Shown: positions 4,399 to 27,690, numbered from the stretch's first letter. The stretch: 64,000 bases of DNA from Candidatus Eiseniibacteriota bacterium (GCA_041946735.1 JBHGAY010000009.1:1-64000); one strand, 5' to 3'. Numbers and translations: made by a program. The notes: generated by a model not told the origin, from the letters alone.

Positions 4399-5308
4399 TC
4401 CCGATGCGATGCTGCGTCCCCAGGTCGTCGCCGAAGGGGACATACGCATAGTCGGCCTGGACCGAACCCTGATGGAGACCGATACCGAAGCTCACGTCCT
4501 CGCTGTCGAGCCCGCTCCGATAGCCGAGACGAAGCCGGGCGACTTCGCGCAGCCGGTACTCGACGCCGAGCTGCAGGTTCGGGTCCTCCTCCCGCACCTT
4601 GCGGACTTCCGCGGCGAGCAGGGCCGTGGCTCCGATCGACGGGAGCCGCAGGCGGTAGGTTGCGCCTCCCTGGACGGTCATCGGAAGGCTCAGCTGTTGG
4701 TCCACGTAACGGAGGTTCGGGCCGAGATGCAGCAGAGCGAGGCCGAAGTCGAGCCCGGCGAAGACGTCGCGGCCGAGGACGCCCGCGTCGAGGGAGATGC
4801 CGTCGGCGCTGTACGTGTCGAGCTGCTCCCGGACGTAGCTCGCCCCTACGCCGAGACTCCAGGAGTCGCTCATCTGGTATCCCCCCGCCAGACCGGTGGA
4901 GATCCCGTAATAGCCGAACTTGCCCTGATAGATGCCCGCGTTGTCGTAGGAGTCGAGCTGGTCGCTCCACGTCCCATGCAGGGACACTCCGAGGCCGAGG
5001 CGCCCGAAGCTGCGGGTGATCCCGGCGAACTCCTGGCGGATCGACTGGAAGCTCTCGTTGTGCGCGACGGTCGCCTGCAGTCCAGGTTGGAACGCGAGGG
5101 CGGCCGGATTCCAGTACGTGGCCGAGGGCCCTTCGACGTTCGACACGACCGCATTGCCCATCGCGACGGCCTCGGCGCCGGCGCCGATCTTCAGGTAGGC
5201 CATTCCGACGGGAGCGGCGGATGCGGATCCGAGGACGGTGGATCCGAGGACGGCGAGAGATGCGAGCGCGAAGAGAACCGGCGGCAGCCCCAAACGACGA
5301 CGAGCCAT
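4379..5308 (-). CDS. PorV/PorQ family outer-membrane beta-barrel
   Basis: Signal peptide, then YLKIGAGAEAVAMGNA and YWNPAALA (PorV/FadL-type N-terminus), alternating beta strands and a C-terminal DYAY...HRIGITY. Confidence 0.8.
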   Translation of the reverse strand: MARRRLGLPPVLFALASLAVLGSTVLGSASAAPVGMAYLKIGAGAEAVAMGNAVVSNVEGPSATYWNPAALAFQPGLQATVAHNESFQSIRQEFAGITRSFGRLGLGVSLHGTWSDQLDSYDNAGIYQGKFGYYGISTGLAGGYQMSDSWSLGVGASYVREQLDTYSADGISLDAGVLGRDVFAGLDFGLALLHLGPNLRYVDQQLSLPMTVQGGATYRLRLPSIGATALLAAEVRKVREEDPNLQLGVEYRLREVARLRLGYRSGLDSEDVSFGIGLHQGSVQADYAYVPFGDDLGTQHRIGITYRRQ

Positions 5309-5424
5309 GAATCTCCCCTGCGGAATGTGACTCCCCTTCGGGCAGGAAACGCTGCGGCGGGAACCGGACGTCATTGCGGTTGCCCGCAGCAACGTCGTGA
5401 GGATAGGGAACGCCTAGAGGCGGG

Positions 5425-6300
5425 TCAACGTGGCGCTGCCCCGGAGGCTGCGGCCTTGCTGCGGGGCGGCCGCCACGAAGCGAGGGCCGGGCTGGCCTCG
5501 CGCAGCTCCTGATTGCCCGGGTCGATTTGATAGGCCCAATCGAGCACGACCTCCTGCGGTGTCACGCGGACAACGCGGAACTTCGCGTAGTGATCGTCTC
5601 TCGTCCAAGCGACGTACACGTGTCCCTCGATCACCTCGACTTCGGCGCGCGGAGACCAACCGTCCGGTGGCGCCCACGTGACGTCGTCGAACTCCGCGAA
5701 ACCCGCATCCTGGAGCTCCGTCAGGAGGCTCGGATCGTCCGGGTCCTCGAGCCCCAGAATCCAGGCCCCGCCATCGGGATCGTAGAGGTAGGCGATATCG
5801 GCGCGCGGGTCGTCGTATCCCGTCACCATCTCGTGCGAGAAGTCGTAAGCGGAACGAGAAGGATCGTCGTTGTAGTTGCGCAAACGCAGGCCGCGGCCTT
5901 CCGGGCGCGGGGTGTCCTGGACCAGCTCCGGGGAGAGATCACTCTCGTTGCCGTCCCAGTCGAGCGCGCTCACCGCATAGTAGTAGGTCTCGCCATTGGT
6001 CACGTCCTGGTCCACGTACTCGACGGAGCTCGCAGGGACGGAGGCGATCTGAACATACGAGCCGGTCGGATGGTCACCCCTGTAGACGCGGTAGCGATCG
6101 AGGTCCGGCTCCTCGTTGGGGTACCAGAGGATCGTCACCTCTTCGTCCCCCGTGATGCTCGTGACCCCTCGCGGAGCGGCGGGGGGATCGAAGTCCGAGC
6201 ACGGGGACGAAGAATCGTCATCGCATCCGGCGGCGAGGATCGCAAGAACTCCGAAAGCCGCCAGGATGGCGCATCCGTGACGAAAGCGAATGGGTCTCAT
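5425..6300 (-). CDS. lipoprotein with a fibronectin type III-like domain
   Basis: Lipobox ILAAG-C, PAAPRGV...VTILW...YRVYR...NGETYYYAVSALDWDGNESDLS. RBS GAGGAGG upstream. Confidence 0.75.
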   Translation of the reverse strand: MRPIRFRHGCAILAAFGVLAILAAGCDDDSSSPCSDFDPPAAPRGVTSITGDEEVTILWYPNEEPDLDRYRVYRGDHPTGSYVQIASVPASSVEYVDQDVTNGETYYYAVSALDWDGNESDLSPELVQDTPRPEGRGLRLRNYNDDPSRSAYDFSHEMVTGYDDPRADIAYLYDPDGGAWILGLEDPDDPSLLTELQDAGFAEFDDVTWAPPDGWSPRAEVEVIEGHVYVAWTRDDHYAKFRVVRVTPQEVVLDWAYQIDPGNQELREASPALASWRPPRSKAAASGAAPR

Positions 6301-17312: not shown

Positions 17313-17389
<77 letters not shown>

Positions 17390-17747: not shown

Positions 17748-19481
17748 ATGATCCTTCGCAACCTCTGTCTTCCGGTTCTACTTCTCGCCATCGCCATCGT
17801 CCTCGTGACCGTGAGCAGCTCGACGGCCTGGGCGCTGTGGCCCACCGACCCGGCCGTGAACCTCGCGATCACGGACAGGCCCGGGGAGGAGGTGGTTCCC
17901 AAGATGGCCGCGACGTCGGACGGCGGGTGCTACATCGCCTGGTTCGATGGTCCGGCGGGACTGTATACCGTGCGCATGCAGCGGCTCGACGCTCTCGGAA
18001 ACGAGGTCTGGCCGCACAACGGGATCCTGGTCAGCGACAATCCGCAATCCAGCTCGTTGGTCGATTGGGATCTCGACTGCGACAGGGACGATCACGCCGT
18101 TCTCGTCTTCACCGACACGCGAGACGGGGAGGACCTCGACGTCTTCGCGTACCGCATCGGACCCGACGGCTCCTTCGATTGGGGGCCGGACGGGATCCAG
18201 CTCTCCGCGGACGCGATCTTCGAGCCCAGCCCCCAGTGCGCCGCCTTGCCCGACGGCGATGCTGTCTTCGCATGGCCGTGGCTCCCGGATACAGGAGTCG
18301 GCGCCATTCTCATTCAGAAGGTCTCCCCCGAGGGAACCGTGCGGTTCGACCCGCCCGTCCGCATCGATGGAGGCGGGACGAACGAGCGGCCAGCGTTCTG
18401 CGACGTGGTCGCCGCCGGTTCCTCCCAGTTCATCGTTGGATACGTGCGAGACATTCGGACCTTCCAGTCTCCACGTCACCTGCGCGCGATGAAGTTCGCA
18501 GCGGATGGGTCGAAGCTCTGGAACGGGGGCGTTCCCCTGAACGTCTTCGAGCAGACGTCCCTGCCGATCGCATACCAGCCGATCGTCCAGAGCGACGAGG
18601 CGGGAGGAGCGATCTTCTGCTGGCACTACAGCGACGGCAACCTCTATCACAGCGCGGTCCAGCGCGTGGTGACGGGCGGAACCGAGATCTTCCCCCACAA
18701 CGGAGTGCAGCTCTCGCTGGCCCCGGGCGTCTTTCACATCGAGCCGACGATCTGCTTCCGCCCGGGCGAGGATGAGATCATCGCGTTCTGGCAGACGCGA
18801 AGCAGCAACCAGGACCGATGGGGAGTCTCGACGCAGAAGATCACGGCGGTCGGAAACCGCGCATGGACGGACAACGGGCGCGTCCTGGTCCCGATGGACG
18901 AGATCTACGAAGGACAGCCGCGCTGCACCCGGATGGCGGACGGCGCCTGCGTCGTCTACTTCGACGAGCCGACCGGATCGCAGGTGCAGGACCGGGTGAT
19001 GGCGATGCGGGTCGACGCCAATGGATCCCTCGTCTGGGGCGCCGATCCCATGCCCGTTTCGTCGATCTACAGCGACAAGGGAAGGCTACCGGTCGTGATG
19101 CGTCCCGACGAGAAGGTGATCGCGCTTTGGGAGGACAACCGAGCGGGATCGATCGACCTCTACGCGCAGCTCCTGAACCCGGACGGAACGCTCGGCATTT
19201 CGGCCGGATCGGTGCCGGACGTCGGCGCGGTGCCCGCGCTGGCGGGCAGCTTCCCGAACCCATTCCACTCGACGACGCAGATCCTCTTGTCGGGACCGGC
19301 GGGATCGGACCTGCGGCTCTACGACGCGCAAGGCCGGCTCGTGCGCACTCTCGCCTCGCCCGGCGCGCGCGTTCTCTGGGACGGCACGGACGATCGGGGC
19401 GCTCCGGTGCCCGGCGGCGTGTACCTGTACCGGATCGACGGCGGAGGAGAGACGGGACGAGTCGTGCTCGTGCGCCGGTAG
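17748..19481 (+). CDS. secreted beta-rich repeat protein with a C-terminal FlgD-Ig/T9SS-like domain
   Basis: Signal peptide, repeated 'DG.GG..IAW...QR...G...W' units, and a tail FPNPF...YDAQGRLVR...WDGTD...GVYL. Confidence 0.75.
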   Translation: MILRNLCLPVLLLAIAIVLVTVSSSTAWALWPTDPAVNLAITDRPGEEVVPKMAATSDGGCYIAWFDGPAGLYTVRMQRLDALGNEVWPHNGILVSDNPQSSSLVDWDLDCDRDDHAVLVFTDTRDGEDLDVFAYRIGPDGSFDWGPDGIQLSADAIFEPSPQCAALPDGDAVFAWPWLPDTGVGAILIQKVSPEGTVRFDPPVRIDGGGTNERPAFCDVVAAGSSQFIVGYVRDIRTFQSPRHLRAMKFAADGSKLWNGGVPLNVFEQTSLPIAYQPIVQSDEAGGAIFCWHYSDGNLYHSAVQRVVTGGTEIFPHNGVQLSLAPGVFHIEPTICFRPGEDEIIAFWQTRSSNQDRWGVSTQKITAVGNRAWTDNGRVLVPMDEIYEGQPRCTRMADGACVVYFDEPTGSQVQDRVMAMRVDANGSLVWGADPMPVSSIYSDKGRLPVVMRPDEKVIALWEDNRAGSIDLYAQLLNPDGTLGISAGSVPDVGAVPALAGSFPNPFHSTTQILLSGPAGSDLRLYDAQGRLVRTLASPGARVLWDGTDDRGAPVPGGVYLYRIDGGGETGRVVLVRR

Positions 19482-19602: not shown

Positions 19603-21756
19603 TTACAGGTCGAATCGTCTCCCCACTTTCAGGAATCCCTGCGTGGTCCATCGCCCCCCATCGCTCGTGTCGTTCGCGCGGACGATCCCGGCATAGATGA
19701 CATCGCCCGGACGGACGACGCGGCCGAAGAGGATCTCGGCATGGGCCCGGTCGCCGGGCGCCAGGCGGCGTAGCCCGCCGCGCAGGAAGCTCCGGAGTCC
19801 GAGCGTCCATTCCGCGCGGGCGTCGAGCACCCAGGCGCGGTAGAGGAGGCGTTCCGACCGGCGCATCCTTTCCCATCCCATCGTCAAGTCGGCGCGCAGC
19901 CAGTCGGCGGGCGCCACGGTGGCGGCTCCTGTCAGAGAGAGCAACGAGCCGACGATCGCCTCTGGGTAGAAGGCGGCGCGGCCGGCCGTGCCCTCCGCGG
20001 CAAGCTGGAGATCGCGCCGGCCCGTCGACATGGCCGTAACGGTCCAGAGTCCCTGATCGAGAGGACTGCCTGCGAAGGACTCCCACTGATCGCGATAGGC
20101 GATCGTGACCGAGCGGGTCGGGTCGATCTCGTAGCGCAGCTTCGCCGTCGTACGACGGTCGGTCGGCTTCCCCTTCTCGTCGGCGCCGCGCAGATGGACG
20201 AGAGAAGGGGTGAGAGAGGCGAGGCCGCGGCGGCGTATCCAGAATCGGTAGCTGCCGGTCGCTTCGACGCCCGAGAAGTCCCGGCGGGGAATGTAGCCGG
20301 CCCGGTCGACGAAGCGCGCGGAGTAGTGAAACGGGCGCACCTTGGCCGACAGGCTTTTCGACGTGTAGCCCATCGCCCCTTCGAAAGCCGCGCCCCGCGT
20401 CGTGCCCTTCGCCGTCCGGTCGCGGTCGGCGAGGATGTCGAAGGTGGCGAGGAGGCTGCGGCCGATGCGCAGGCTTCCGTCCAACCCTCCGACGAGGTTG
20501 CGGATCTCGTCCCCGTCGACCGCGATGGCGGTGAGGCCGAGATGCGATCCCGTGTACAGGTCGCGCACCCAGCGGGCGACCAGGTCGTCGCGCGCGGCAG
20601 ACCCCGAGACTCCGTCCTCGCGCCGTTCGCGAGCGAGGAGCAGCGTGTAGTGGGACTTGCCGATCTCCCCCGACGCCCGGCCGCCGTACTCCGGCGCGAC
20701 GATCCGTCGGGAGTAGAAAGCCCGGATCGGCATCTCCTGGAAGAGCTCCGCGTGCTCCAGGAAGAACGGCCGCTTCTCCGGGTAGTAGAGCGGGGAGCGG
20801 TTGTTGACGTCGATCTGCGGAACGTCGGCTTCCACCTGAGAGAAGTCGGGGTGGACCGTGAGGTTCAGGATCGCCGCGCTCGCGAGGCAGGCGACGGCGT
20901 CCGCGCCTGCCTTGGCGCGGCGGCGGGAGCCGTCGGCGTCGGCGTAGACGTAGGGCTGCACCGTCCTCTCTCCCGGCCCACGCAGCGGTCGGACGGCGAC
21001 CGGCAGCGATGTCTTCGTGAAGTCGAGGATCTTTCGGGACGCGCGGGGATGGGTGAGAACCTCGCCGGTCGCGGGAACGAACCGCATCGCCGAGAGGTGC
21101 CAGTCTCGCACGGCCGAGGAGTAGCGGAGGATCGCGAAAGGGATGCGGATCTCGACCGAGTAGCCGGCCGAATCGATCCGCGCGGCCGAGTCCCAGACGG
21201 AATCCCAGGTGAGATCCTCATTCGCCTTTGCGACGCCATCCTCCTGCACGCCGCGCGCGCTCACTCCGAAGAAGTAGCGGGTACGCCCCTCTCCCGAGGT
21301 GTCGAGATAGACGAAGACTCCTTCCGAAGTCGCGGCGTGCATTGCCTGATCCCTCTTGGCGACCGGCGCCCAGAGCGAGGAAGGATCCCGGACGGAGCAT
21401 CGGAAGGCGAAGTAGAGCGCGCGGCCGTCCTGACGGAAGTAGAAGAGCGTCGCCTCGCTGGGCTGGCCGTCCTCGTCGGGCGCGAAGCGGAAGAAACGAT
21501 CGGCGATCGGCGGTCCCCAGTCGTCCTCGACGATCCGGCCGTCGACCCGGAGATCGAGATCGAGATCGCGGTTCGCCTCCCCCGGGAATGCTGTCGACGC
21601 GGCGGCCGGTGGGGTGAGAAGAGCAAGAGGCGCGACAAGAAGAGCAAGAGGCGTGAGAAGAGCGAGAGGGACGAGTAGAGAGCCGGAAATCGCGAGCCTC
21701 CTCCGCCGGAGCGGGTCCGAGCGTCGCTTCGTGCTAGTAGTGAGCGAGCGTGCCAT
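19603..21756 (-). CDS. DUF5916-type outer-membrane protein with an N-terminal CBM9-like domain
   Basis: VDGRI.E.DW, LYFAF, WDSVWDSA, EIRIPF, NLTVHPDFSQVEAD and EKRPFFLE, followed by C-terminal beta strands. Confidence 0.75.
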   Translation of the reverse strand: MARSLTTSTKRRSDPLRRRRLAISGSLLVPLALLTPLALLVAPLALLTPPAAASTAFPGEANRDLDLDLRVDGRIVEDDWGPPIADRFFRFAPDEDGQPSEATLFYFRQDGRALYFAFRCSVRDPSSLWAPVAKRDQAMHAATSEGVFVYLDTSGEGRTRYFFGVSARGVQEDGVAKANEDLTWDSVWDSAARIDSAGYSVEIRIPFAILRYSSAVRDWHLSAMRFVPATGEVLTHPRASRKILDFTKTSLPVAVRPLRGPGERTVQPYVYADADGSRRRAKAGADAVACLASAAILNLTVHPDFSQVEADVPQIDVNNRSPLYYPEKRPFFLEHAELFQEMPIRAFYSRRIVAPEYGGRASGEIGKSHYTLLLARERREDGVSGSAARDDLVARWVRDLYTGSHLGLTAIAVDGDEIRNLVGGLDGSLRIGRSLLATFDILADRDRTAKGTTRGAAFEGAMGYTSKSLSAKVRPFHYSARFVDRAGYIPRRDFSGVEATGSYRFWIRRRGLASLTPSLVHLRGADEKGKPTDRRTTAKLRYEIDPTRSVTIAYRDQWESFAGSPLDQGLWTVTAMSTGRRDLQLAAEGTAGRAAFYPEAIVGSLLSLTGAATVAPADWLRADLTMGWERMRRSERLLYRAWVLDARAEWTLGLRSFLRGGLRRLAPGDRAHAEILFGRVVRPGDVIYAGIVRANDTSDGGRWTTQGFLKVGRRFDL

Positions 21757-22483
21757 CGCGCATCACCCTCCTGTCGGAGGCGCGGAACACGAGGATCCCC
21801 AAGGCAAGCATCGCCGCGGCGGGCGCGAGGGGTCGCGGATCGATCAGGGAGCCGCTCCGAACCCCGTCGAGGAGCACGTCGCGCAGCCGGATCGACATCG
21901 CCGTGTACGGGATCCAGTGCCAGATCGCCCGCCCATCGGTGGTCGCGAAGAAGGCGAGCATCATCATCAGAAACTGAAGCGGTTGGAACAGGGCCGCCGT
22001 TCTCTTCCACCGGAGATCGGCCGCGGTGAACACCAACGCGAGACCGAAGAGGAAGAGGATCGCGAGCGGCAGGTAGAGCAGACCGGCGAAAAGCCGGCCG
22101 GGGCTTCCGAACGCGAGCGTCGCCAGAATGCCCCCGCTCACCAGGTACCCCGGCATGTTCCAGAGGACGTTCGAGCCGATCGTCAGAAGCGTCATCCCCA
22201 GGTGCCCGAGCGGCGAGAGGAACTCCCGCTCGATCAGGCCGCTCGCCGCCTTCCCGGTGATCGCCTGCACCGCCACCTGGCTGATATAGAGGTAGATCAG
22301 CCAGGTCATGTAGCCGGCGAGAATGTTCGCCTCCAGACGAGGATCGACCGTCCCGCGCGGAAGGGCCGTCAGGATCGAGACGAACAGGACCGCGACGCCG
22401 ACCGTGGAGAGCAGCCACTCGAGCGGGTAACGCAGACGCGTGGCGAGATCCTTGCGAAGCGTGAGTTGGAGCAGCCGGATCAT
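21734..22483 (-). CDS. ABC-2 type exporter permease
   Basis: About 6 TM helices and 'GLIEREFLSP'. ATGA overlap with the ATPase stop. Confidence 0.8.
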   Translation of the reverse strand: MIRLLQLTLRKDLATRLRYPLEWLLSTVGVAVLFVSILTALPRGTVDPRLEANILAGYMTWLIYLYISQVAVQAITGKAASGLIEREFLSPLGHLGMTLLTIGSNVLWNMPGYLVSGGILATLAFGSPGRLFAGLLYLPLAILFLFGLALVFTAADLRWKRTAALFQPLQFLMMMLAFFATTDGRAIWHWIPYTAMSIRLRDVLLDGVRSGSLIDPRPLAPAAAMLALGILVFRASDRRVMRDGTLAHY

Positions 22484-23415
22484 GGAGCCTCCCCGATGAG
22501 GCGGAGGTAGGCATCGGCCAGCGTCGGGGCGAGCCGTTGGCAGGCGACGACATCGACGCCGCGCTCGGAAAGCTTCGAGGCGGCGGCAAGCGACTCGGAC
22601 AGGCCTCCGCGGATGACGATCCGCGCGATCGCACCGCGCGCCTCGCTGATCGAGTCGAACGGGATTCCGGAGAGATCGAGGCGACCCGCGCAAGCGCGCA
22701 CGTCGAGCGAGTAGCGGTCCTCGCGGAACAGGTCGCGGAGGACGGGGGCGGGACGATCGATCCGCACCCGACCGGCCTTCAGGATGACGATGCGGTCGGC
22801 GACCGACTCGGCGACGTCGAGCTCGTGCGTCGTCAGGAGGACGGCGCGCCCGTCGCCCGAAAGGGCCCGTAGCATCTCCTGCAGCTCCCGCTTGACCTGA
22901 ACGTCCAGGCCGACCGTCGGCTCGTCCAGGACGACGACCGGGGCGCGGCTCAGGAGCGGCACGAGGAGAGCGGCCTTCTGCCTGGTCCCCTTGGAAAGGA
23001 AGCGAACCTGCCGGTCGAGCGACGAGGCGAGGCCGAGGCGTTCTGCAGCCGCGAGCAAGAGAGGCTCATCGACCCGCTCGTAGCCGACAGCCAGGAAGTA
23101 ATGGACGTTTTCGCGGACGGTGAGCCGGTGGTACAGGTTGCGGTCCCCTTCGAGGCAGGCGCACAGAGCGCGCAGGGCGCGGCCGCGCGATCGCGTGACC
23201 GATCGCCCTGCGATCCGGATGGATCCGCGGTCGGGAAGCAGCAGACCGCAGATCGCCTTGACGAGAGTGCTCTTTCCCGCTCCGTTGGGACCGAGCAAAG
23301 CGACCAGCTCGCCGCGCTCGATCGAGAGATCGAGCCGTTCGAGGACCCAGGGCCCTTTGGCGCCATAGCGTTTCGCCAGATCGTGGACCTCCAGACCGCG
23401 CTGCGCCGGTGACAC
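22480..23415 (-). CDS. ABC exporter ATP-binding protein
   Basis: Walker A GPNGAGKS, signature LSKG, Walker B VVLDEPT and H-loop TTH. Start uncertain. Confidence 0.92.
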   Translation of the reverse strand: MSPAQRGLEVHDLAKRYGAKGPWVLERLDLSIERGELVALLGPNGAGKSTLVKAICGLLLPDRGSIRIAGRSVTRSRGRALRALCACLEGDRNLYHRLTVRENVHYFLAVGYERVDEPLLLAAAERLGLASSLDRQVRFLSKGTRQKAALLVPLLSRAPVVVLDEPTVGLDVQVKRELQEMLRALSGDGRAVLLTTHELDVAESVADRIVILKAGRVRIDRPAPVLRDLFREDRYSLDVRACAGRLDLSGIPFDSISEARGAIARIVIRGGLSESLAAASKLSERGVDVVACQRLAPTLADAYLRLIGEAP

Positions 23416-23488
23416 CGACAGCCTGGCGAAGAGAGAGGGACGAGGGCGGAGAGGGGAATCCCCTCCGCCCACCACCCGGCCGGCTTCC

Positions 23489-23587
23489 CTACTCGTGCGA
23501 ATCGACCGTGCACCCATCGTTGCACTGTCCGTCGGAGCACCAGAGATTGATGCCGAAGATGCTGCTGGAGTCGCTGACCGTATACAT
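23489..23587 (-). CDS. putative RiPP precursor peptide C (32 aa): MYTVSDSSSIFGINLWCSDGQCNDGCTVDSHE
   Basis: Manually translated; CAGGAGG RBS; paralog of the neighbouring 34-aa peptide. Confidence 0.8.
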   Translation of the reverse strand: MYTVSDSSSIFGINLWCSDGQCNDGCTVDSHE

Positions 23588-23663
23588 CACGCACCTCCTG
23601 TCGGGGGAGCGCCTCCCCCGGTTCGGGCCTCAGACTCTGCGCCGCCGCGGCGGCCGGGACGTT

Positions 23664-23768
23664 TCAGTCCCCCGTCACGTGGCAGCCGTCATTGCAGGTT
23701 TCGTCGTGGCAGATGATGTTGAGGAACCCCAGCGTGAAACCGCTCGTAACCTCCGAGGTCGTGTACAT
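23664..23768 (-). CDS. putative RiPP precursor peptide B (34 aa): MYTTSEVTSGFTLGFLNIICHDETCNDGCHVTGD
   Basis: Manually translated; GAAAGGA RBS; shares MYT.S and N-x-x-C-x-D-x-x-C-N-D-G-C-x-V with peptide C. Confidence 0.8.
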   Translation of the reverse strand: MYTTSEVTSGFTLGFLNIICHDETCNDGCHVTGD

Positions 23769-23871
23769 GCGTTCCTTTCTTCCGCCCGCTCGCCGCGCCT
23801 GCCCGGCGCGCCGAGAGCGGGCCTCTTCTCTCTCGGGCGCCGCGCAGGCTCTCTTCGCGCGGCGCCCGGTC

Positions 23872-23949
23872 CTACCAGAATCCGCAGATGAAGTTGATCA
23901 GGGGGATGCGAACGACGTCCTCGTCTTCATCGTGATGGAACAGCCACAT
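23872..23949 (-). CDS. putative RiPP precursor peptide A (25 aa): MWLFHHDEDEDVVRIPLINFICGFW
   Basis: Manually translated; strong AAGGAGG RBS inside the 3' end of the rSAM gene; shares [IL]-N-x-x-C with peptides B and C. Confidence 0.65.
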   Translation of the reverse strand: MWLFHHDEDEDVVRIPLINFICGFW

Positions 23950-25279
23950 GGCTCTCCTCCTTTTGGATTGCCGGGGAGACCGTAGGCGAGAGTCTTCCCG
24001 CCCGTGCCTGATAGAAGAGACCGATCAGCTCCAGCCATCGACTCGCATGGAGCTTCTCGTAGGGACACTGGACCGATCCCTTCTCGATCACCTTTCGCGG
24101 ACAGCTCCCGGCCTGACATGCCGAGAGCAGGAAGCAAGAAGCGCACCCGTTCGCATCCCGGCCAGCGCCGGTCCAGAGTGCGAAGAGACTCGCGTCGATT
24201 TCGAGGGTGCCGTCCTCGCGCAGGCGGCCGATCCGGTTCTCTCGAAGATCGAAAGCGACGGTGCATTTGTACAAGCTGCCGTCGGAGCCGATGACGAGGG
24301 ATCGACGGCATGCGGCGTAGCAGACCAGACGGTGCGGGATCACGTGGGAGAGGATCCAGTACGGGAAGAGGCCGCTTCGGATGATCCTCTCGGTCACCGC
24401 CCGGACCGCCTCGAACCCTTCCTCTCCCCGGAGCTCCTCGATGGGCGCTTCGGGGCGGCCCTTCCAGACGTTCCTCGCGTAGAACTGCACCCGCGGATCG
24501 CCCGCGAATTCCGAGGCGAGCAGGTCGACGAACCAGAGCATGCCGTCGAGGTTCTCCCGATCGAGATTCAGCCGAACGACCGCGCGGGCGGGCGGGTCGG
24601 AGTCGCGAACGCGTCGAATCGCGGCCAGGGCGGCGTGGAACGTGCCAACGCCACGCCGCGAGATCCTCCGCCGGTCGTGCAGCCAGGACGGCCCGTCGAG
24701 CGTGACCTGGAAGGAAACGCACCCGTGGCGCACGAGGAACGCGAGCCGGTCCTCGGTCAGGAGCGTTCCGTTGGTCGTCATCGACATCTGGAATGGGACG
24801 CCGGCATCTGCGGCGATCGAGCGGATCCGGGGAACCAGGTCGCAGATGACGTCCCACGCGAGCAGGGGCTCGCCGCCGAACCAGTCGAGATGCAGGCGTC
24901 GAAGGCTGGACACCCGGGCCGTCAGATGCCGGACGATGGCCTCGCGAACGTCGATCTCCATCGCGCCGCGGGCGAAGTCCTCGTAGCAGTACACGCAGCG
25001 GAGGTTGCACTGCTCGGTCGGCATGAGCGTCAAGTAGAGCTGGCTCGCGTCATCCCTCTGATCGAACGGCGGGCGCGGCGTCCGAGCGTCGAAGCCGTTT
25101 TCGAGGAACTGGCGCGCCAGCTCGCTCCCATCGCTGCGCGCCCGCTCGGGATTCTCGAACCAGGCGAACACTTTCTCCCGGTTCTCCCGAAAGACGATTC
25201 CGCTCTTGCCGGTCGGAATGTGCAGGAACACTTCGTCCCCGTTGGGGAGCGGCTCGGTCAGGAACGTCTCGGTGCGCAT
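23927..25279 (-). CDS. radical SAM/SPASM-domain peptide maturase
   Basis: CNLRCVYC and WFGGEP, then SPASM-type CYAA...IGSDGSLYKC...CASCFLLSACQAGSCP...CP. Short N-terminal extension (RRE-like by inference). GGAGG RBS. Confidence 0.9.
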   Translation of the reverse strand: MRTETFLTEPLPNGDEVFLHIPTGKSGIVFRENREKVFAWFENPERARSDGSELARQFLENGFDARTPRPPFDQRDDASQLYLTLMPTEQCNLRCVYCYEDFARGAMEIDVREAIVRHLTARVSSLRRLHLDWFGGEPLLAWDVICDLVPRIRSIAADAGVPFQMSMTTNGTLLTEDRLAFLVRHGCVSFQVTLDGPSWLHDRRRISRRGVGTFHAALAAIRRVRDSDPPARAVVRLNLDRENLDGMLWFVDLLASEFAGDPRVQFYARNVWKGRPEAPIEELRGEEGFEAVRAVTERIIRSGLFPYWILSHVIPHRLVCYAACRRSLVIGSDGSLYKCTVAFDLRENRIGRLREDGTLEIDASLFALWTGAGRDANGCASCFLLSACQAGSCPRKVIEKGSVQCPYEKLHASRWLELIGLFYQARAGRLSPTVSPAIQKEESHVAVPSR

Positions 25280-25475
25280 CTACCCACCTCCGTCGGCATT
25301 CCGCCGCCGTCGCCCGCCAGCGCGCGGCGGCTCGAGATCATTCGGACGCGGGGATGGGATGAAAGAAGCGTGCCGGCGGAAGGGACGGAGTGGCTGCGCG
25401 AGGATCGGGCAGCGGCGCGTTCCGTGCTGCGGGGACGCGCGCGACGGATCCAGACGACGCGAGAGGACCGAGCGG

Positions 25476-26786
25476 CTAACGTTCGCGCAGAATCGAGACT
25501 TTCGCCCGGAACTCCTGTGGACCGATCCTCGCGTGCACGAAGTAAACCCCGCGGGCGACCGGGCGGCCCTCTTCGTCTCGGCCGTCCCAAATCATCTCTT
25601 CGGTCCCAACCGGAAGAAGCCGGGTCGAGAGGGATCGCACGCGGCGCCCCTCGGCGTCCCAGACGTCGAGCGAGCCGTCCGCCGCGCGGGGCAGGGCGGG
25701 GATCGGAAAGCGAACCTCTCCGGACGACGGATTGGGGAGTATCGAGCCCGCCTTCGACGCGGAGGCATCTCCGTCTCCCCCGCTTCCATGGCGCCCGCCG
25801 CCATCCGGGATTGCGAGGAACGACGGGGGACGGCCGGGAACGAAGATGGCGAGGCTCCGCTCCGGAATCTCGTCCCAGTCGTCTTCGTCCGAGCCAAGAG
25901 GCTGAGAGGCGACGACCCAGTAGGGAGAGCCTTGGGTCCCCGAACTCGCGCCGGCGGCTGGCATGTAGCAGAGCGGGTCCCAGGCGTCGTTGGCGTCAAG
26001 ACGGAGCGCGAAGAGCGTATCGCCGCGCGTCAGGACGCAGTTCAGTCGGGTCCCGGGAAAGCGGGAGAACAGCTCGGAGGCGGCGAGGCGTAGGGCGCCG
26101 GTCCGTCCCAGGTCCCGATGCCGCTCGATCGACTCGAGCAGATAAAGGAAGTACAGCTCCGAGTCGATGTGCCCGTCGACGTAGTCGGGCGGGTGCCGCT
26201 CGAGATAGTGCGGGTCCTCCTGCTGAATCAAGTGATAGAGCGCATCGGACGGCAACGTGCCGTTGTGCGCGAAGAGCATGCCGTCGTGCTGGAACGGGTG
26301 AGGGTTCGGGATTCCCCAGTGGCCGGAGCTGCCCGCCCGCACGTGCGCGATGACGGCCGCGGGACGCACCGCGCTGAGCTCCTCGACCGCCTCTCGGAAC
26401 TCGCTCTCCCCCGGGTGATTCGCCGGCGGGCCGCCCCTCCGCACGATCGGTCCCCGGATGGGCGTCGAAGAATCGGGGGTGGGGAAGAAGCCGATCCCCC
26501 ATCCGTCGCGATTGCCCCCGCCCAGATCTCGCAGGTTCGCGACCGTCCCGTCGCGCAGGTGATCGGCCGCCAGCGCGGAGGGATAGCCCGAACCGATGAG
26601 CGCCCAGAAGCGGCAAGCGGCTGCGGGCCGTGGGAGGAGCGCGAAGGCCAGACCGGCCAGGAGCACTACCGCCGGCAGCAGCAGCGGAACCGCGGACAGG
26701 CCGGCGGAGAGAGGCGCCGGCACTCTAGCGAGGGGCGGGCTTGCGGGGCGCAGAGACGGGGCGAACCGCTGACGGTCCTTCTCCAT
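25476..26786 (-). CDS. exported class II glutamine amidotransferase-like (Ntn hydrolase) protein with a FlgD-Ig tail
   Basis: Hydrophobic signal ending AAA, then CRFW; DGWGIG, IAHVR, PHPF, FAHNG and IDSE; C-terminal PNP...WDGRD...GVYF. Confidence 0.8.
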   Translation of the reverse strand: MEKDRQRFAPSLRPASPPLARVPAPLSAGLSAVPLLLPAVVLLAGLAFALLPRPAAACRFWALIGSGYPSALAADHLRDGTVANLRDLGGGNRDGWGIGFFPTPDSSTPIRGPIVRRGGPPANHPGESEFREAVEELSAVRPAAVIAHVRAGSSGHWGIPNPHPFQHDGMLFAHNGTLPSDALYHLIQQEDPHYLERHPPDYVDGHIDSELYFLYLLESIERHRDLGRTGALRLAASELFSRFPGTRLNCVLTRGDTLFALRLDANDAWDPLCYMPAAGASSGTQGSPYWVVASQPLGSDEDDWDEIPERSLAIFVPGRPPSFLAIPDGGGRHGSGGDGDASASKAGSILPNPSSGEVRFPIPALPRAADGSLDVWDAEGRRVRSLSTRLLPVGTEEMIWDGRDEEGRPVARGVYFVHARIGPQEFRAKVSILRER

Positions 26787-26916
26787 GCGACGCCTCCTCC
26801 GGTGCGGGTCAGGGCGCGAATTCCGGCCCAAGGAGGATCGCACAGCGCCAGCGGTCCTGTCCACCAGAGGGGCGCCGGAAGCCAGCAGTCCGCAACCCGG
26901 GAACGGCGAATCGCGC

Positions 26917-27690
26917 CTACTGGAGCGAGGTGCCGAAGCGCGACAGGCGGAGGCGCTTCCAGATGGGGAGATGATCCTCACGGTCCCAGGAGAGAGTCAC
27001 GACGCGCGCTCGTCCCACGATGTTCGAAACGGGGACCGGGCCGAAGAAGCGGGAGTCGAGCGAGTAGTCGCGGTTGTCCCCCATGAGGAACACGGACCCC
27101 TCGGGGATCACGATCGGGCCGAAGTTGTCCCGGTTGCCGAGATCGGCGGGAATGCCGGGAAGGATCGTGCCGGGCGGGGCCGTCCAGCGGTCGCGGTGCA
27201 CGACGTGCGTCGATTCTTCGACACGGGCACCGTTGACGTAGAGACTCTTGTCGCGGATCTCGACCCGGTCGCCGCCGACCGCCACGACCCGCTTCACGTA
27301 CGGCGTCGTCCGGTCGACGGGGACTTCGACGACCACGATGTCGCCGCGGCGCGGCGAGCGCAGCCCGGGCAGCTTCCACGCGGGGAGGTCGACGCCGATC
27401 TTCGTCCCCGGGATGCCGAGCCATTGCGGCGTGCGGGGCCCGAGGGTCAGCTTGTCGGCAAGAAGGAAGTCCCCGGCCAGGATCGTCCCCTCCATCGATC
27501 CGCTGGGGACGTTGAAGGCTTGGACGATTCCGACCTGAAGCACGAGCAGCAGGCCCAGCATCGTCACGACGTCCCGGACGGCGGCAAGCAGGCGCGACAG
27601 GCGGTGCCCCCCGCCGGACTCCCGAGCGGCCTCGCCGCCCGGCTGCGCGGGCGCTTGCGGCGGCGGGAAAGGCTCCTCGTTGCGTTGCAT
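26917..27690 (-). CDS. lepB: signal peptidase I
   Basis: AFNVPSGSMEGT (Ser), YVKR (Lys) and GDNRDYSLDSR. Confidence 0.93.
   Translation of the reverse strand: MQRNEEPFPPPQAPAQPGGEAARESGGGHRLSRLLAAVRDVVTMLGLLLVLQVGIVQAFNVPSGSMEGTILAGDFLLADKLTLGPRTPQWLGIPGTKIGVDLPAWKLPGLRSPRRGDIVVVEVPVDRTTPYVKRVVAVGGDRVEIRDKSLYVNGARVEESTHVVHRDRWTAPPGTILPGIPADLGNRDNFGPIVIPEGSVFLMGDNRDYSLDSRFFGPVPVSNIVGRARVVTLSWDREDHLPIWKRLRLSRFGTSLQ

Follow-up and report, generated by a model that had tools for sequence, protein, structure and literature searches.

We describe an operon in a 64,000-nt stretch of Candidatus Eiseniibacteriota DNA (JBHGAY010000009.1; the window, from whose first letter all coordinates are counted) that very probably encodes a genuine radical S-adenosylmethionine (rSAM) peptide maturation system. 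From 25279 to 19603 all genes share the minus strand, comprising an rSAM/SPASM maturase, three tiny candidate precursor genes (P1, P2 and P3), an ATP-binding cassette (ABC) ATPase, a permease and a DUF5916 protein. Judged by similarity, the product is most likely a ranthipeptide-like thioether RiPP (a peptide made by the ribosome and modified after its translation) with one or three small rings. A first-pass annotation of the same DNA had read the locus as an rSAM/SPASM operon of the RiPP type that brings precursor genes of its own and an associated ABC transporter, and this description is borne out here.

What the three peptides have in common is the residue three positions before cysteine. 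Asn or Asp occupies position −3 of all seven cysteines across P1–P3, with Asn at five of the seven: N19xxC22 in P1; N17xxC20, D22xxC25 and N26xxC29 in P2; N14xxC17, D19xxC22 and N23xxC26 in P3. None of 200,000 joint shuffles placed Asn or Asp at −3 of every Cys, the frequencies for the single peptides being 0.15 (P1), 0.0018 (P2) and 0.0034 (P3). P2 and P3 share MYT.S and N..C.D..CNDGC.V, as had been noticed earlier, and the longer pattern then proposed, N-x-x-C-x-D-x-x-C-N-D-G-C, reduces to a simpler rule, namely Asn or Asp three residues before each Cys. The first-pass annotation could match the family to no described class. This no longer holds, since (N/D)xxC at 7/7 cysteines is the motif of the NxxC ranthipeptide subfamily, as the accessible portions of PMC9389541 and PMC8326336 present it.

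We are highly confident that P2 and P3 are genes and moderately so for P1, the least certain of the three. The ORFs of 25, 34 and 32 aa (ORF, open reading frame) were recovered on the minus strand with exactly the sequences first quoted, and the claim that each has its own ribosome-binding site stands, strongly for P1 (AAGGAGG, 6 nt 5′ of the ATG) and P3 (AGGAGG, 6 nt 5′ of the ATG) and weakly for P2 (AAGGA only, 4 nt 5′ of the ATG). Of 1887 crude ORF starts in the genome, 44% have a Shine–Dalgarno-like 4–5-mer before them and 14% a strong 6-mer, against 17% and 1.4% of internal control sites, so that the genome does use such sites. GC content at third codon positions (GC3) is 0.80, 0.88 and 0.84 in P1, P2 and P3, with an overall GC of only 0.53–0.59 (0.53 for P1). 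This composition agrees with the pattern of the adjacent real genes, and its signature of high GC3 with moderate GC is found in 245 of the genome's 8521 small ATG ORFs (2.9%). In P2 and P3, 16 of 28 aligned residues are identical and 8 of these 16 use different codons; the proportion of differences is 0.67 at synonymous sites (pS) and 0.36 at nonsynonymous sites (pN), and in the flanks nothing but GC-rich noise aligns. The codon differences, the excess of pS over pN and the unalignable flanks together argue that conservation acts at the level of the protein. A public collection moreover already lists both peptides as called proteins (sources NCBI and Logan; P3 there 32 aa) but does not contain the exact sequence of P1, so that the description of the genes as hidden applies to P1 only. 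None of the three recurs elsewhere in the genome.

Two of the small genes are followed by candidate RNA structures. The segment behind P1 (23875..23780 folded) reaches −63 kcal/mol (z −3.86), a stability equalled in 0/200 shuffles, and we infer that this hairpin acts as a transcript stabiliser or attenuator. The one behind P3 (23492..23416 folded; −39.2 kcal/mol, z −1.72) is weak evidence, being matched by 8/200 shuffles.

The maturase is a member of the rSAM superfamily, with 60.4 bits to Pfam Radical_SAM (PF04055; cut-off 29.5) and a cluster motif, C91-x3-C95-x2-C98, that is invariant in an alignment of 34 sequences (A1). In the same sequences its seven C-terminal cysteines (C320, C339, C379, C382, C388, C393 and C405) are invariant or at least 90% conserved. 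The canonical SPASM form, whose seven cysteines serve two auxiliary Fe–S clusters, is CX9-15GX4C...CX2CX5CX3C...C. The window enzyme has the arrangement C320-x13-G334-x4-C339 ... C379-x2-C382-x5-C388-x4-C393 ... C405, which supplies all seven cysteines of the SPASM type with a last spacing of x4 where the canonical one is x3. In an AlphaFold2 model (mean predicted local distance difference test score, pLDDT, 87.2), roughly the first 60 residues form strands 6–10, 16–20 and 25–29 followed by helices 31–42, 44–50 and 53–60, with block pLDDT values of 72–90. This block is predicted to be an RRE-like domain (RRE, RiPP recognition element), in RiPP maturases a leader-binding, PqqD-like winged helix of three strands and three helices.

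By sequence, the closest solved relative is the thioether-forming SCIFF maturase CteB (E 2.9e-18), and by fold it is again CteB (5why/5wgg; E 1.5e-20, template modelling (TM) score 0.65–0.70, ~450 columns, 17–18% identity), in an alignment that covers the full enzyme length including the N-terminal domain; anSME comes next. Among the leading NCBIfam matches, most are enzymes that mature Cys-rich or thioether peptides (TIGR04463, CefB, PapB, Clo7bot, QhpD-type, CcpM and SCIFF), with E-values of 1e-42 to 1e-23; cyclophane-forming families are weaker, at 1e-19 to 1e-13. The thioether-type assignment made earlier from the sequence is therefore retained as the most likely chemistry by similarity, given most of the top NCBIfam matches and the CteB fold.

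By sequence the enzyme is an orphan, with no close relative. Its best non-self match in 5.8 billion clustered proteins has 36% identity over 97% of its length, and among the 119 further matches listed none exceeds 43% identity, the 43% match covering only 64% of the query. Seven of 60 kin genomes match it at E 1e-20, all at 40% identity or less, as do 0/5 genomes of the same family. A predicted complex of the enzyme (its alignment, three 4Fe-4S clusters and SAM) with P2 scored 0.04, which counts neither for nor against binding.

If P1–P3 are substrates, another modification is conceivable, such as an aromatic-to-C-beta cyclophane (Phe, Trp and His are present), an epimerisation or an oxidation of Cys. 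We regard this as unlikely. One SPASM superfamily, according to the part of PMC10288494 accessible, carries out C–C, C–O and C–S bond formation as well as epimerisation, with full-length similarity a poor predictor of function, and the window enzyme falls in no curated family; cyclophane-forming families and DynA are among its matches, and Trp or Phe stands next to the motif in P1 and P3. Yet the top structural match is CteB, the E-values quoted above favour thioether-type over cyclophane families, and the sole feature that P1–P3 share with the neighbour peptides of distant homologs is a Cys with an upstream Asn or Asp, not an aromatic motif.

It is very unlikely, in turn, that the small ORFs are not substrates at all, having either arisen by chance or encoding small proteins with a separate role (Cys/His/Asp metal binders, for instance), beside an enzyme that acts on a protein or another molecule. 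The second structural class among the fold matches is indeed anSME, a protein-modifying enzyme; metal-liganding residues abound in the core CHDETCNDGCH, and P1 is without conservation support. The coding signatures, present in each of the three ORFs, and the protein-level conservation of P2 and P3 speak against chance. The ORFs also follow immediately on the enzyme gene and share its strand, an arrangement with parallels at distant homolog loci that fits a precursor role, and the predicted RRE-like domain would bind a peptide, while the anaerobic sulfatase maturase model (TIGR03942) gives only 78.3 bits against a cut-off of 349.

The neighbourhoods of distant homologs were also examined for small peptides. 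A pattern scan of species-representative genomes yielded 546 relatives, with 80 loci kept; the rSAM ORF was recognised in 83/89 loci, and small ORFs were counted within about 600 nt. The relatives come from more than 10 phyla, among them Bacillota, Actinomycetota, Acidobacteriota, Gemmatimonadota and Pseudomonadota, with archaea also represented. Of the small ORFs, 41/959 on the enzyme's strand end in NxxC vs 16/1096 on the opposite strand and 67/4317 in distal DNA (Fisher p 1.2e-4 and 8.9e-7, respectively). Asn stands at −3 of a C-terminal Cys in 10.7% of cases near homologs vs 4.3% and 4.2% in the controls, the highest value of 12 offsets. Some tiny ORFs are conserved between genera, including METRGVNIIC and METRGTNVIC, one ending ...IDFGC in two loci, and MTWIAK...NGNCGIC. 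The figure of 27/30 hand-picked neighbour peptides with [ND]xxC is circular, these having been chosen partly by the motif, and is excluded as evidence. None of 27 neighbour-peptide candidates reaches a curated precursor family, and six neighbour-peptide motifs gave no match in one supplement file of PMC10288494.

Several of these loci show features of their own. The two ten-codon ORFs METRGVNIIC (L065:3630-3659) and METRGTNVIC (L047:3635-3664) lie ~110 nt upstream of Lachnospiraceae rSAM/SPASM genes and close with the hydrophobic N-x-x-C that is also the first motif in the window peptides; should they prove genuine, they would rank with the shortest precursors of RiPPs. Calidithermus, Ktedonobacteraceae, Catenulispora and Actinoplanes sequences (L011, L017, L018, L021) form one well-supported clade with 22–30-aa ORFs downstream of the rSAM gene that share xWIxK/Q in the N-terminal leader and NxxC at the C-terminus. 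As in the window, three tandem precursor paralogs follow the rSAM gene in L025 (about 5300-5800; two NxxC motifs each) and in L041 (about 5590-5970; all three ending N-x-x-C-N-[VI]-V-A-G-C-S).

The window enzyme sits on a long branch (0.9) within a basal polytomy of an 87-row tree, weakly tied (SH-aLRT 90) to two acidobacterial sequences, L029 and L032, whose context is uninformative. L029 proved unusable as a precursor comparison, as it adjoins ccm-type genes and has a repeat-bearing C-terminus. In this sequence (L029:3050-4357), directly upstream of ccmA/B/C-like genes, a tandem repeat of SPQASCP / GPEASCPL units replaces the CxxCx5Cx3-4C part of SPASM; a frameshift, a gene fusion or another function could account for this. 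Of 39 clade members checked, none reaches any NCBIfam family at E 1e-70. With the window enzyme and the Lachnospiraceae enzyme L065 as queries, the named clade members among the matches listed bear generic names only, and no Streptococcus protein is among the best 120 relatives listed for either query.

The same enzyme and peptides could give thioethers in the orientation of PapB, each Cys being joined to a downstream Asp (in P2 and P3, two C-x-D pairs followed by C-x(2-4)-D), and we consider this quite unlikely. PapB, in the accessible text of PMC9413430, installs six Cys-X3-Asp links (Cys-X3-Asp/Glu) and is promiscuous, accepting Cys-Xn-Asp with n = 0–6; its model ranks third among the NCBIfam matches, and P2 and P3 both keep C-[HS]-D and C-N-D, with an Asp 2 or 4 residues past the last Cys. 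However, P1 is without Asp or Glu after its sole Cys and thus could not be a substrate, the PapB model gives only 123 bits against a cut-off of 340, and 13/30 neighbour peptides of the homolog clade (a hand-picked, biased set) end in Cys with nothing downstream. The unbiased count, moreover, places the Asn enrichment upstream of the C-terminal Cys and not downstream.

Starting from what is directly observed, namely the gene order, the coding signatures, the motifs, the class and fold of the enzyme and its lack of close relatives, we propose a mechanism in which the maturase, three precursors, ABC ATPase and permease, possibly with the DUF5916 protein, form one RiPP operon; as a complete scheme, we see the case for it as evenly balanced. 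The rSAM/SPASM enzyme would bind the short N-terminal part of each precursor, its presumed substrate, via the predicted RRE-like domain. SAM would be cleaved at the C91/C95/C98 cluster and a hydrogen abstracted from the residue (Asn or Asp) at −3 of each Cys, after which that carbon would be joined to the Cys sulfur held at an auxiliary SPASM Fe–S cluster. By similarity the new bond is presumably a thioether, and by analogy the linked carbon may be beta, as in NxxcB, or alpha, as in QmpB, which links the C-alpha of Asn to the S of Cys (PMC11851443, accessible part); because QmpB uses C-alpha, the linked carbon is not predictable from the motif. P1 would thereby acquire one four-residue thioether ring (N19–C22) and P2 and P3 three consecutive rings (NxxC-x-DxxC-NxxC), and the linked ABC transporter would export the product or protect the producer.

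A number of results weigh against this proposal. Among the peptides, no relative of P1 was found and its overlap with the enzyme gene counts against it; the motif statistics of P2 and P3 are not independent, because the two are paralogs, and their C-x-D is conserved too and fits another ring topology. A P2/P3 profile run against 1.84 billion representatives returned P2 and P3 themselves only, and a metagenome scan with the back-translated core N..C.D..CNDGC gave 13 loci, none precursor-like and 0/13 with an rSAM ORF. In the homolog loci an NxxC-tailed ORF occurs, by the unbiased criterion, in only 32/83 loci vs 13/83 on the control strand, and the preference for −3 is moderate, because positions −1, −5 and −6 show raised Asn as well. 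No orthologous cluster was found for comparison, and there is no leader protease among the operon genes. As for the enzyme, the Pfam SPASM model gave no match at E 0.01 or better, and every NCBIfam family listed scores below its curated cut-off: TIGR04463 with 142.9 bits (cut-off 525, E 1.2e-41), CefB (NF038107) with 136.8 (600, E 8.8e-40), PapB (NF047865), the third-best match, with 122.8 (340), Clo7bot (TIGR04334) with 122.2 (600) and the SCIFF maturase (TIGR03974) with 82.1 (425).

We tentatively suggest, as a possibility short of an even case, that P2 and P3 represent a new ranthipeptide subtype, 'tandem NxxC', defined by three contiguous four-residue thioether rings, precursors of ~32–34 aa and a deep-branching orphan maturase. 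It would be the first Eisenbacteria RiPP chemotype, and the cluster would also point to a large uncurated clade of (N/D)xxC maturases in more than 10 phyla. If this is true, three back-to-back four-residue thioether rings would make a compact, rigid scaffold for which our literature searches found no description, and the enzyme would provide a new handle for installing Asn/Asp-to-Cys staples. Possibly more useful is the wider pattern, a pan-phylum SPASM maturase clade beside peptides that tend to end in NxxC, since it yields a testable hypothesis on the function of hundreds of enzymes whose sole annotation is 'radical SAM/SPASM domain-containing protein'; NxxC-type cross-linking would then extend far beyond the streptococcal NxxcB family. 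No title describing this clade or tandem NxxC cores was found in the literature covered, which excluded subscription papers and most supplements. For Eisenbacteria natural products the search listing held survey-type titles only, and the cluster would be a first defined target in this lineage.

The features of the operon are collected in Table 1.

Table 1. Genes and putative RNA structures of the operon, in order of transcription
Feature	Coordinates	Strand	Basis
Radical SAM/SPASM peptide maturase, 450 aa	23927..25279	-	Pfam Radical_SAM E 3.1e-16
P1, candidate precursor, 25 aa, single NxxC (N19-F-I-C22)	23872..23949	-	ORF, Shine–Dalgarno site, GC3
Perfect 13-bp GC-rich stem-loop directly past P1 stop	23834..23868	-	Strand folding
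P2, precursor, 34 aa, three tandem motifs	23664..23768	-	ORF, GC3, paralogy, public protein call
P3, precursor, 32 aa, P2 paralog	23489..23587	-	ORF, Shine–Dalgarno site, GC3, public protein call
11-bp stem-loop past P3 stop, then C/U-rich tract	23444..23470	-	Strand folding, weak
ABC transporter ATP-binding protein (longest ORF)	22480..23517	-	Pfam ABC_tran E 4e-29
Putative ABC-2-type permease, 249 aa	21734..22483	-	Sub-threshold Pfam ABC2_membrane_3, E 0.063
DUF5916 protein, 717 aa	19603..21756	-	Pfam DUF5916 E 1.1e-7

P2 and P3 do lie between the rSAM gene and the ABC exporter, as first described for all three ORFs, but P1 overlaps the final 23 nt of the rSAM gene. P3 is 32 aa long from its ATG and 33 aa from a GTG at 23590; the longest ORF of the ATPase (ATG 23517) overlaps P3, an in-frame GTG at 23415 giving an overlap-free start. 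The permease ATG overlaps the ATPase stop (ATGA), and the start of the DUF5916 gene overlaps the permease 3′ end by 23 nt. A sigma-70 promoter scan gave no site, a terminator scan found 4 vs 2.6 expected, and Rfam gave no match within 23300-25600. No sulfatase is present among the six large ORFs domain-scanned, with no search aimed at sulfatases made.

The ATPase is best matched in NCBIfam by a DrrA-type family (145 bits, below the cut-off of 312). With this permease as query, none of 40 kin genomes gave a match, and being missing from them it is, like the rSAM gene, accessory. DUF5916 proteins, by comparison, match in 38/40 kin genomes, with 5 matches in the window's own genome (contigs C2, C7 and C56 among them), the best match outside it having 27–37% identity; since this is a multi-copy lineage family, its membership in the cluster is uncertain and the gene is only possibly part of the operon.

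A tRNA-Met gene (17313-17389, plus strand) lies ~2.2 kb past the DUF5916 end of the operon and may mark an island boundary, because the rSAM and permease genes are without orthologs in kin genomes. The operon is flanked by genes at 17748-19481 (plus strand) and 25476-26981 (minus strand), whose proteins both carry a C-terminal FlgD_ig-like domain; the latter, upstream of the rSAM gene, additionally encodes a class-II glutamine amidotransferase domain. No link of either gene to the cluster was seen. Contigs with DNA near-identical to 21700-25300 occur in public metagenomes of industrial waste, rhizosphere and landfill, contributed by at least three further studies, so that more than one sample contains the organism. 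Only near-identical contig pieces, with no informative variants in the peptide genes, came from four DNA runs of three other studies.

Compared with known systems, the window enzyme has its top two HMM (hidden Markov model) matches in TIGR04463 (rSAM_vs_C_rich) and CefB (Cys-every-fifth), by name maturases of short Cys-rich peptides; the scores are far below the cut-offs, so that it is not a member of either family. Its best solved relative belongs to the CteA/CteB system (SCIFF/thermocellin), whereas the window precursors are not SCIFF-like. PapA/PapB, the system behind the ranthipeptide freyrasin with its six beta-thioethers, resembles the proposed product in its several in-line small thioether rings from Cys to an acidic or amide residue, and PapB, like the window enzyme with its predicted RRE-like domain, is an rSAM/SPASM protein with an RRE; the freyrasin acceptor, however, lies downstream at +4 and that of the window upstream at −3, and the precursors are unrelated. 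The closest parallel is the NxxcA/NxxcB pair of Streptococcus orisratti, in which, by the available text of PMC9389541 and PMC8326336, NxxcB forms a beta-thioether between the S of Cys23 and the C-beta of Asn20 of the short precursor NxxcA, with the thiol probably bound to an auxiliary cluster and with Asp, Ala or Gln tolerated at the acceptor position. In both systems a SPASM-type rSAM enzyme adjoins a very short precursor with NxxC near its C-terminus (Asn20–Cys23 in NxxcA, Asn19–Cys22 in P1), so that leaders once thought unusually short are not unusual for this subfamily, and the tolerance for Asp has its counterpart in the Asp at −3 of two window cysteines. The differences are that NxxcA has one NxxC unit and P2 and P3 have three tandem (N/D)xxC units, that the window operon showed no shp/rgg quorum-sensing genes, and that the hosts are a streptococcus and an Eisenbacteria-class soil bacterium. 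With Asn or Asp at −3 of 7/7 cysteines the window peptides carry the precursor motif of the NxxC-type ranthipeptides. Since (N/D)xxC is found at every cysteine of these short precursors, the cluster would work most like an NxxC-type ranthipeptide system.

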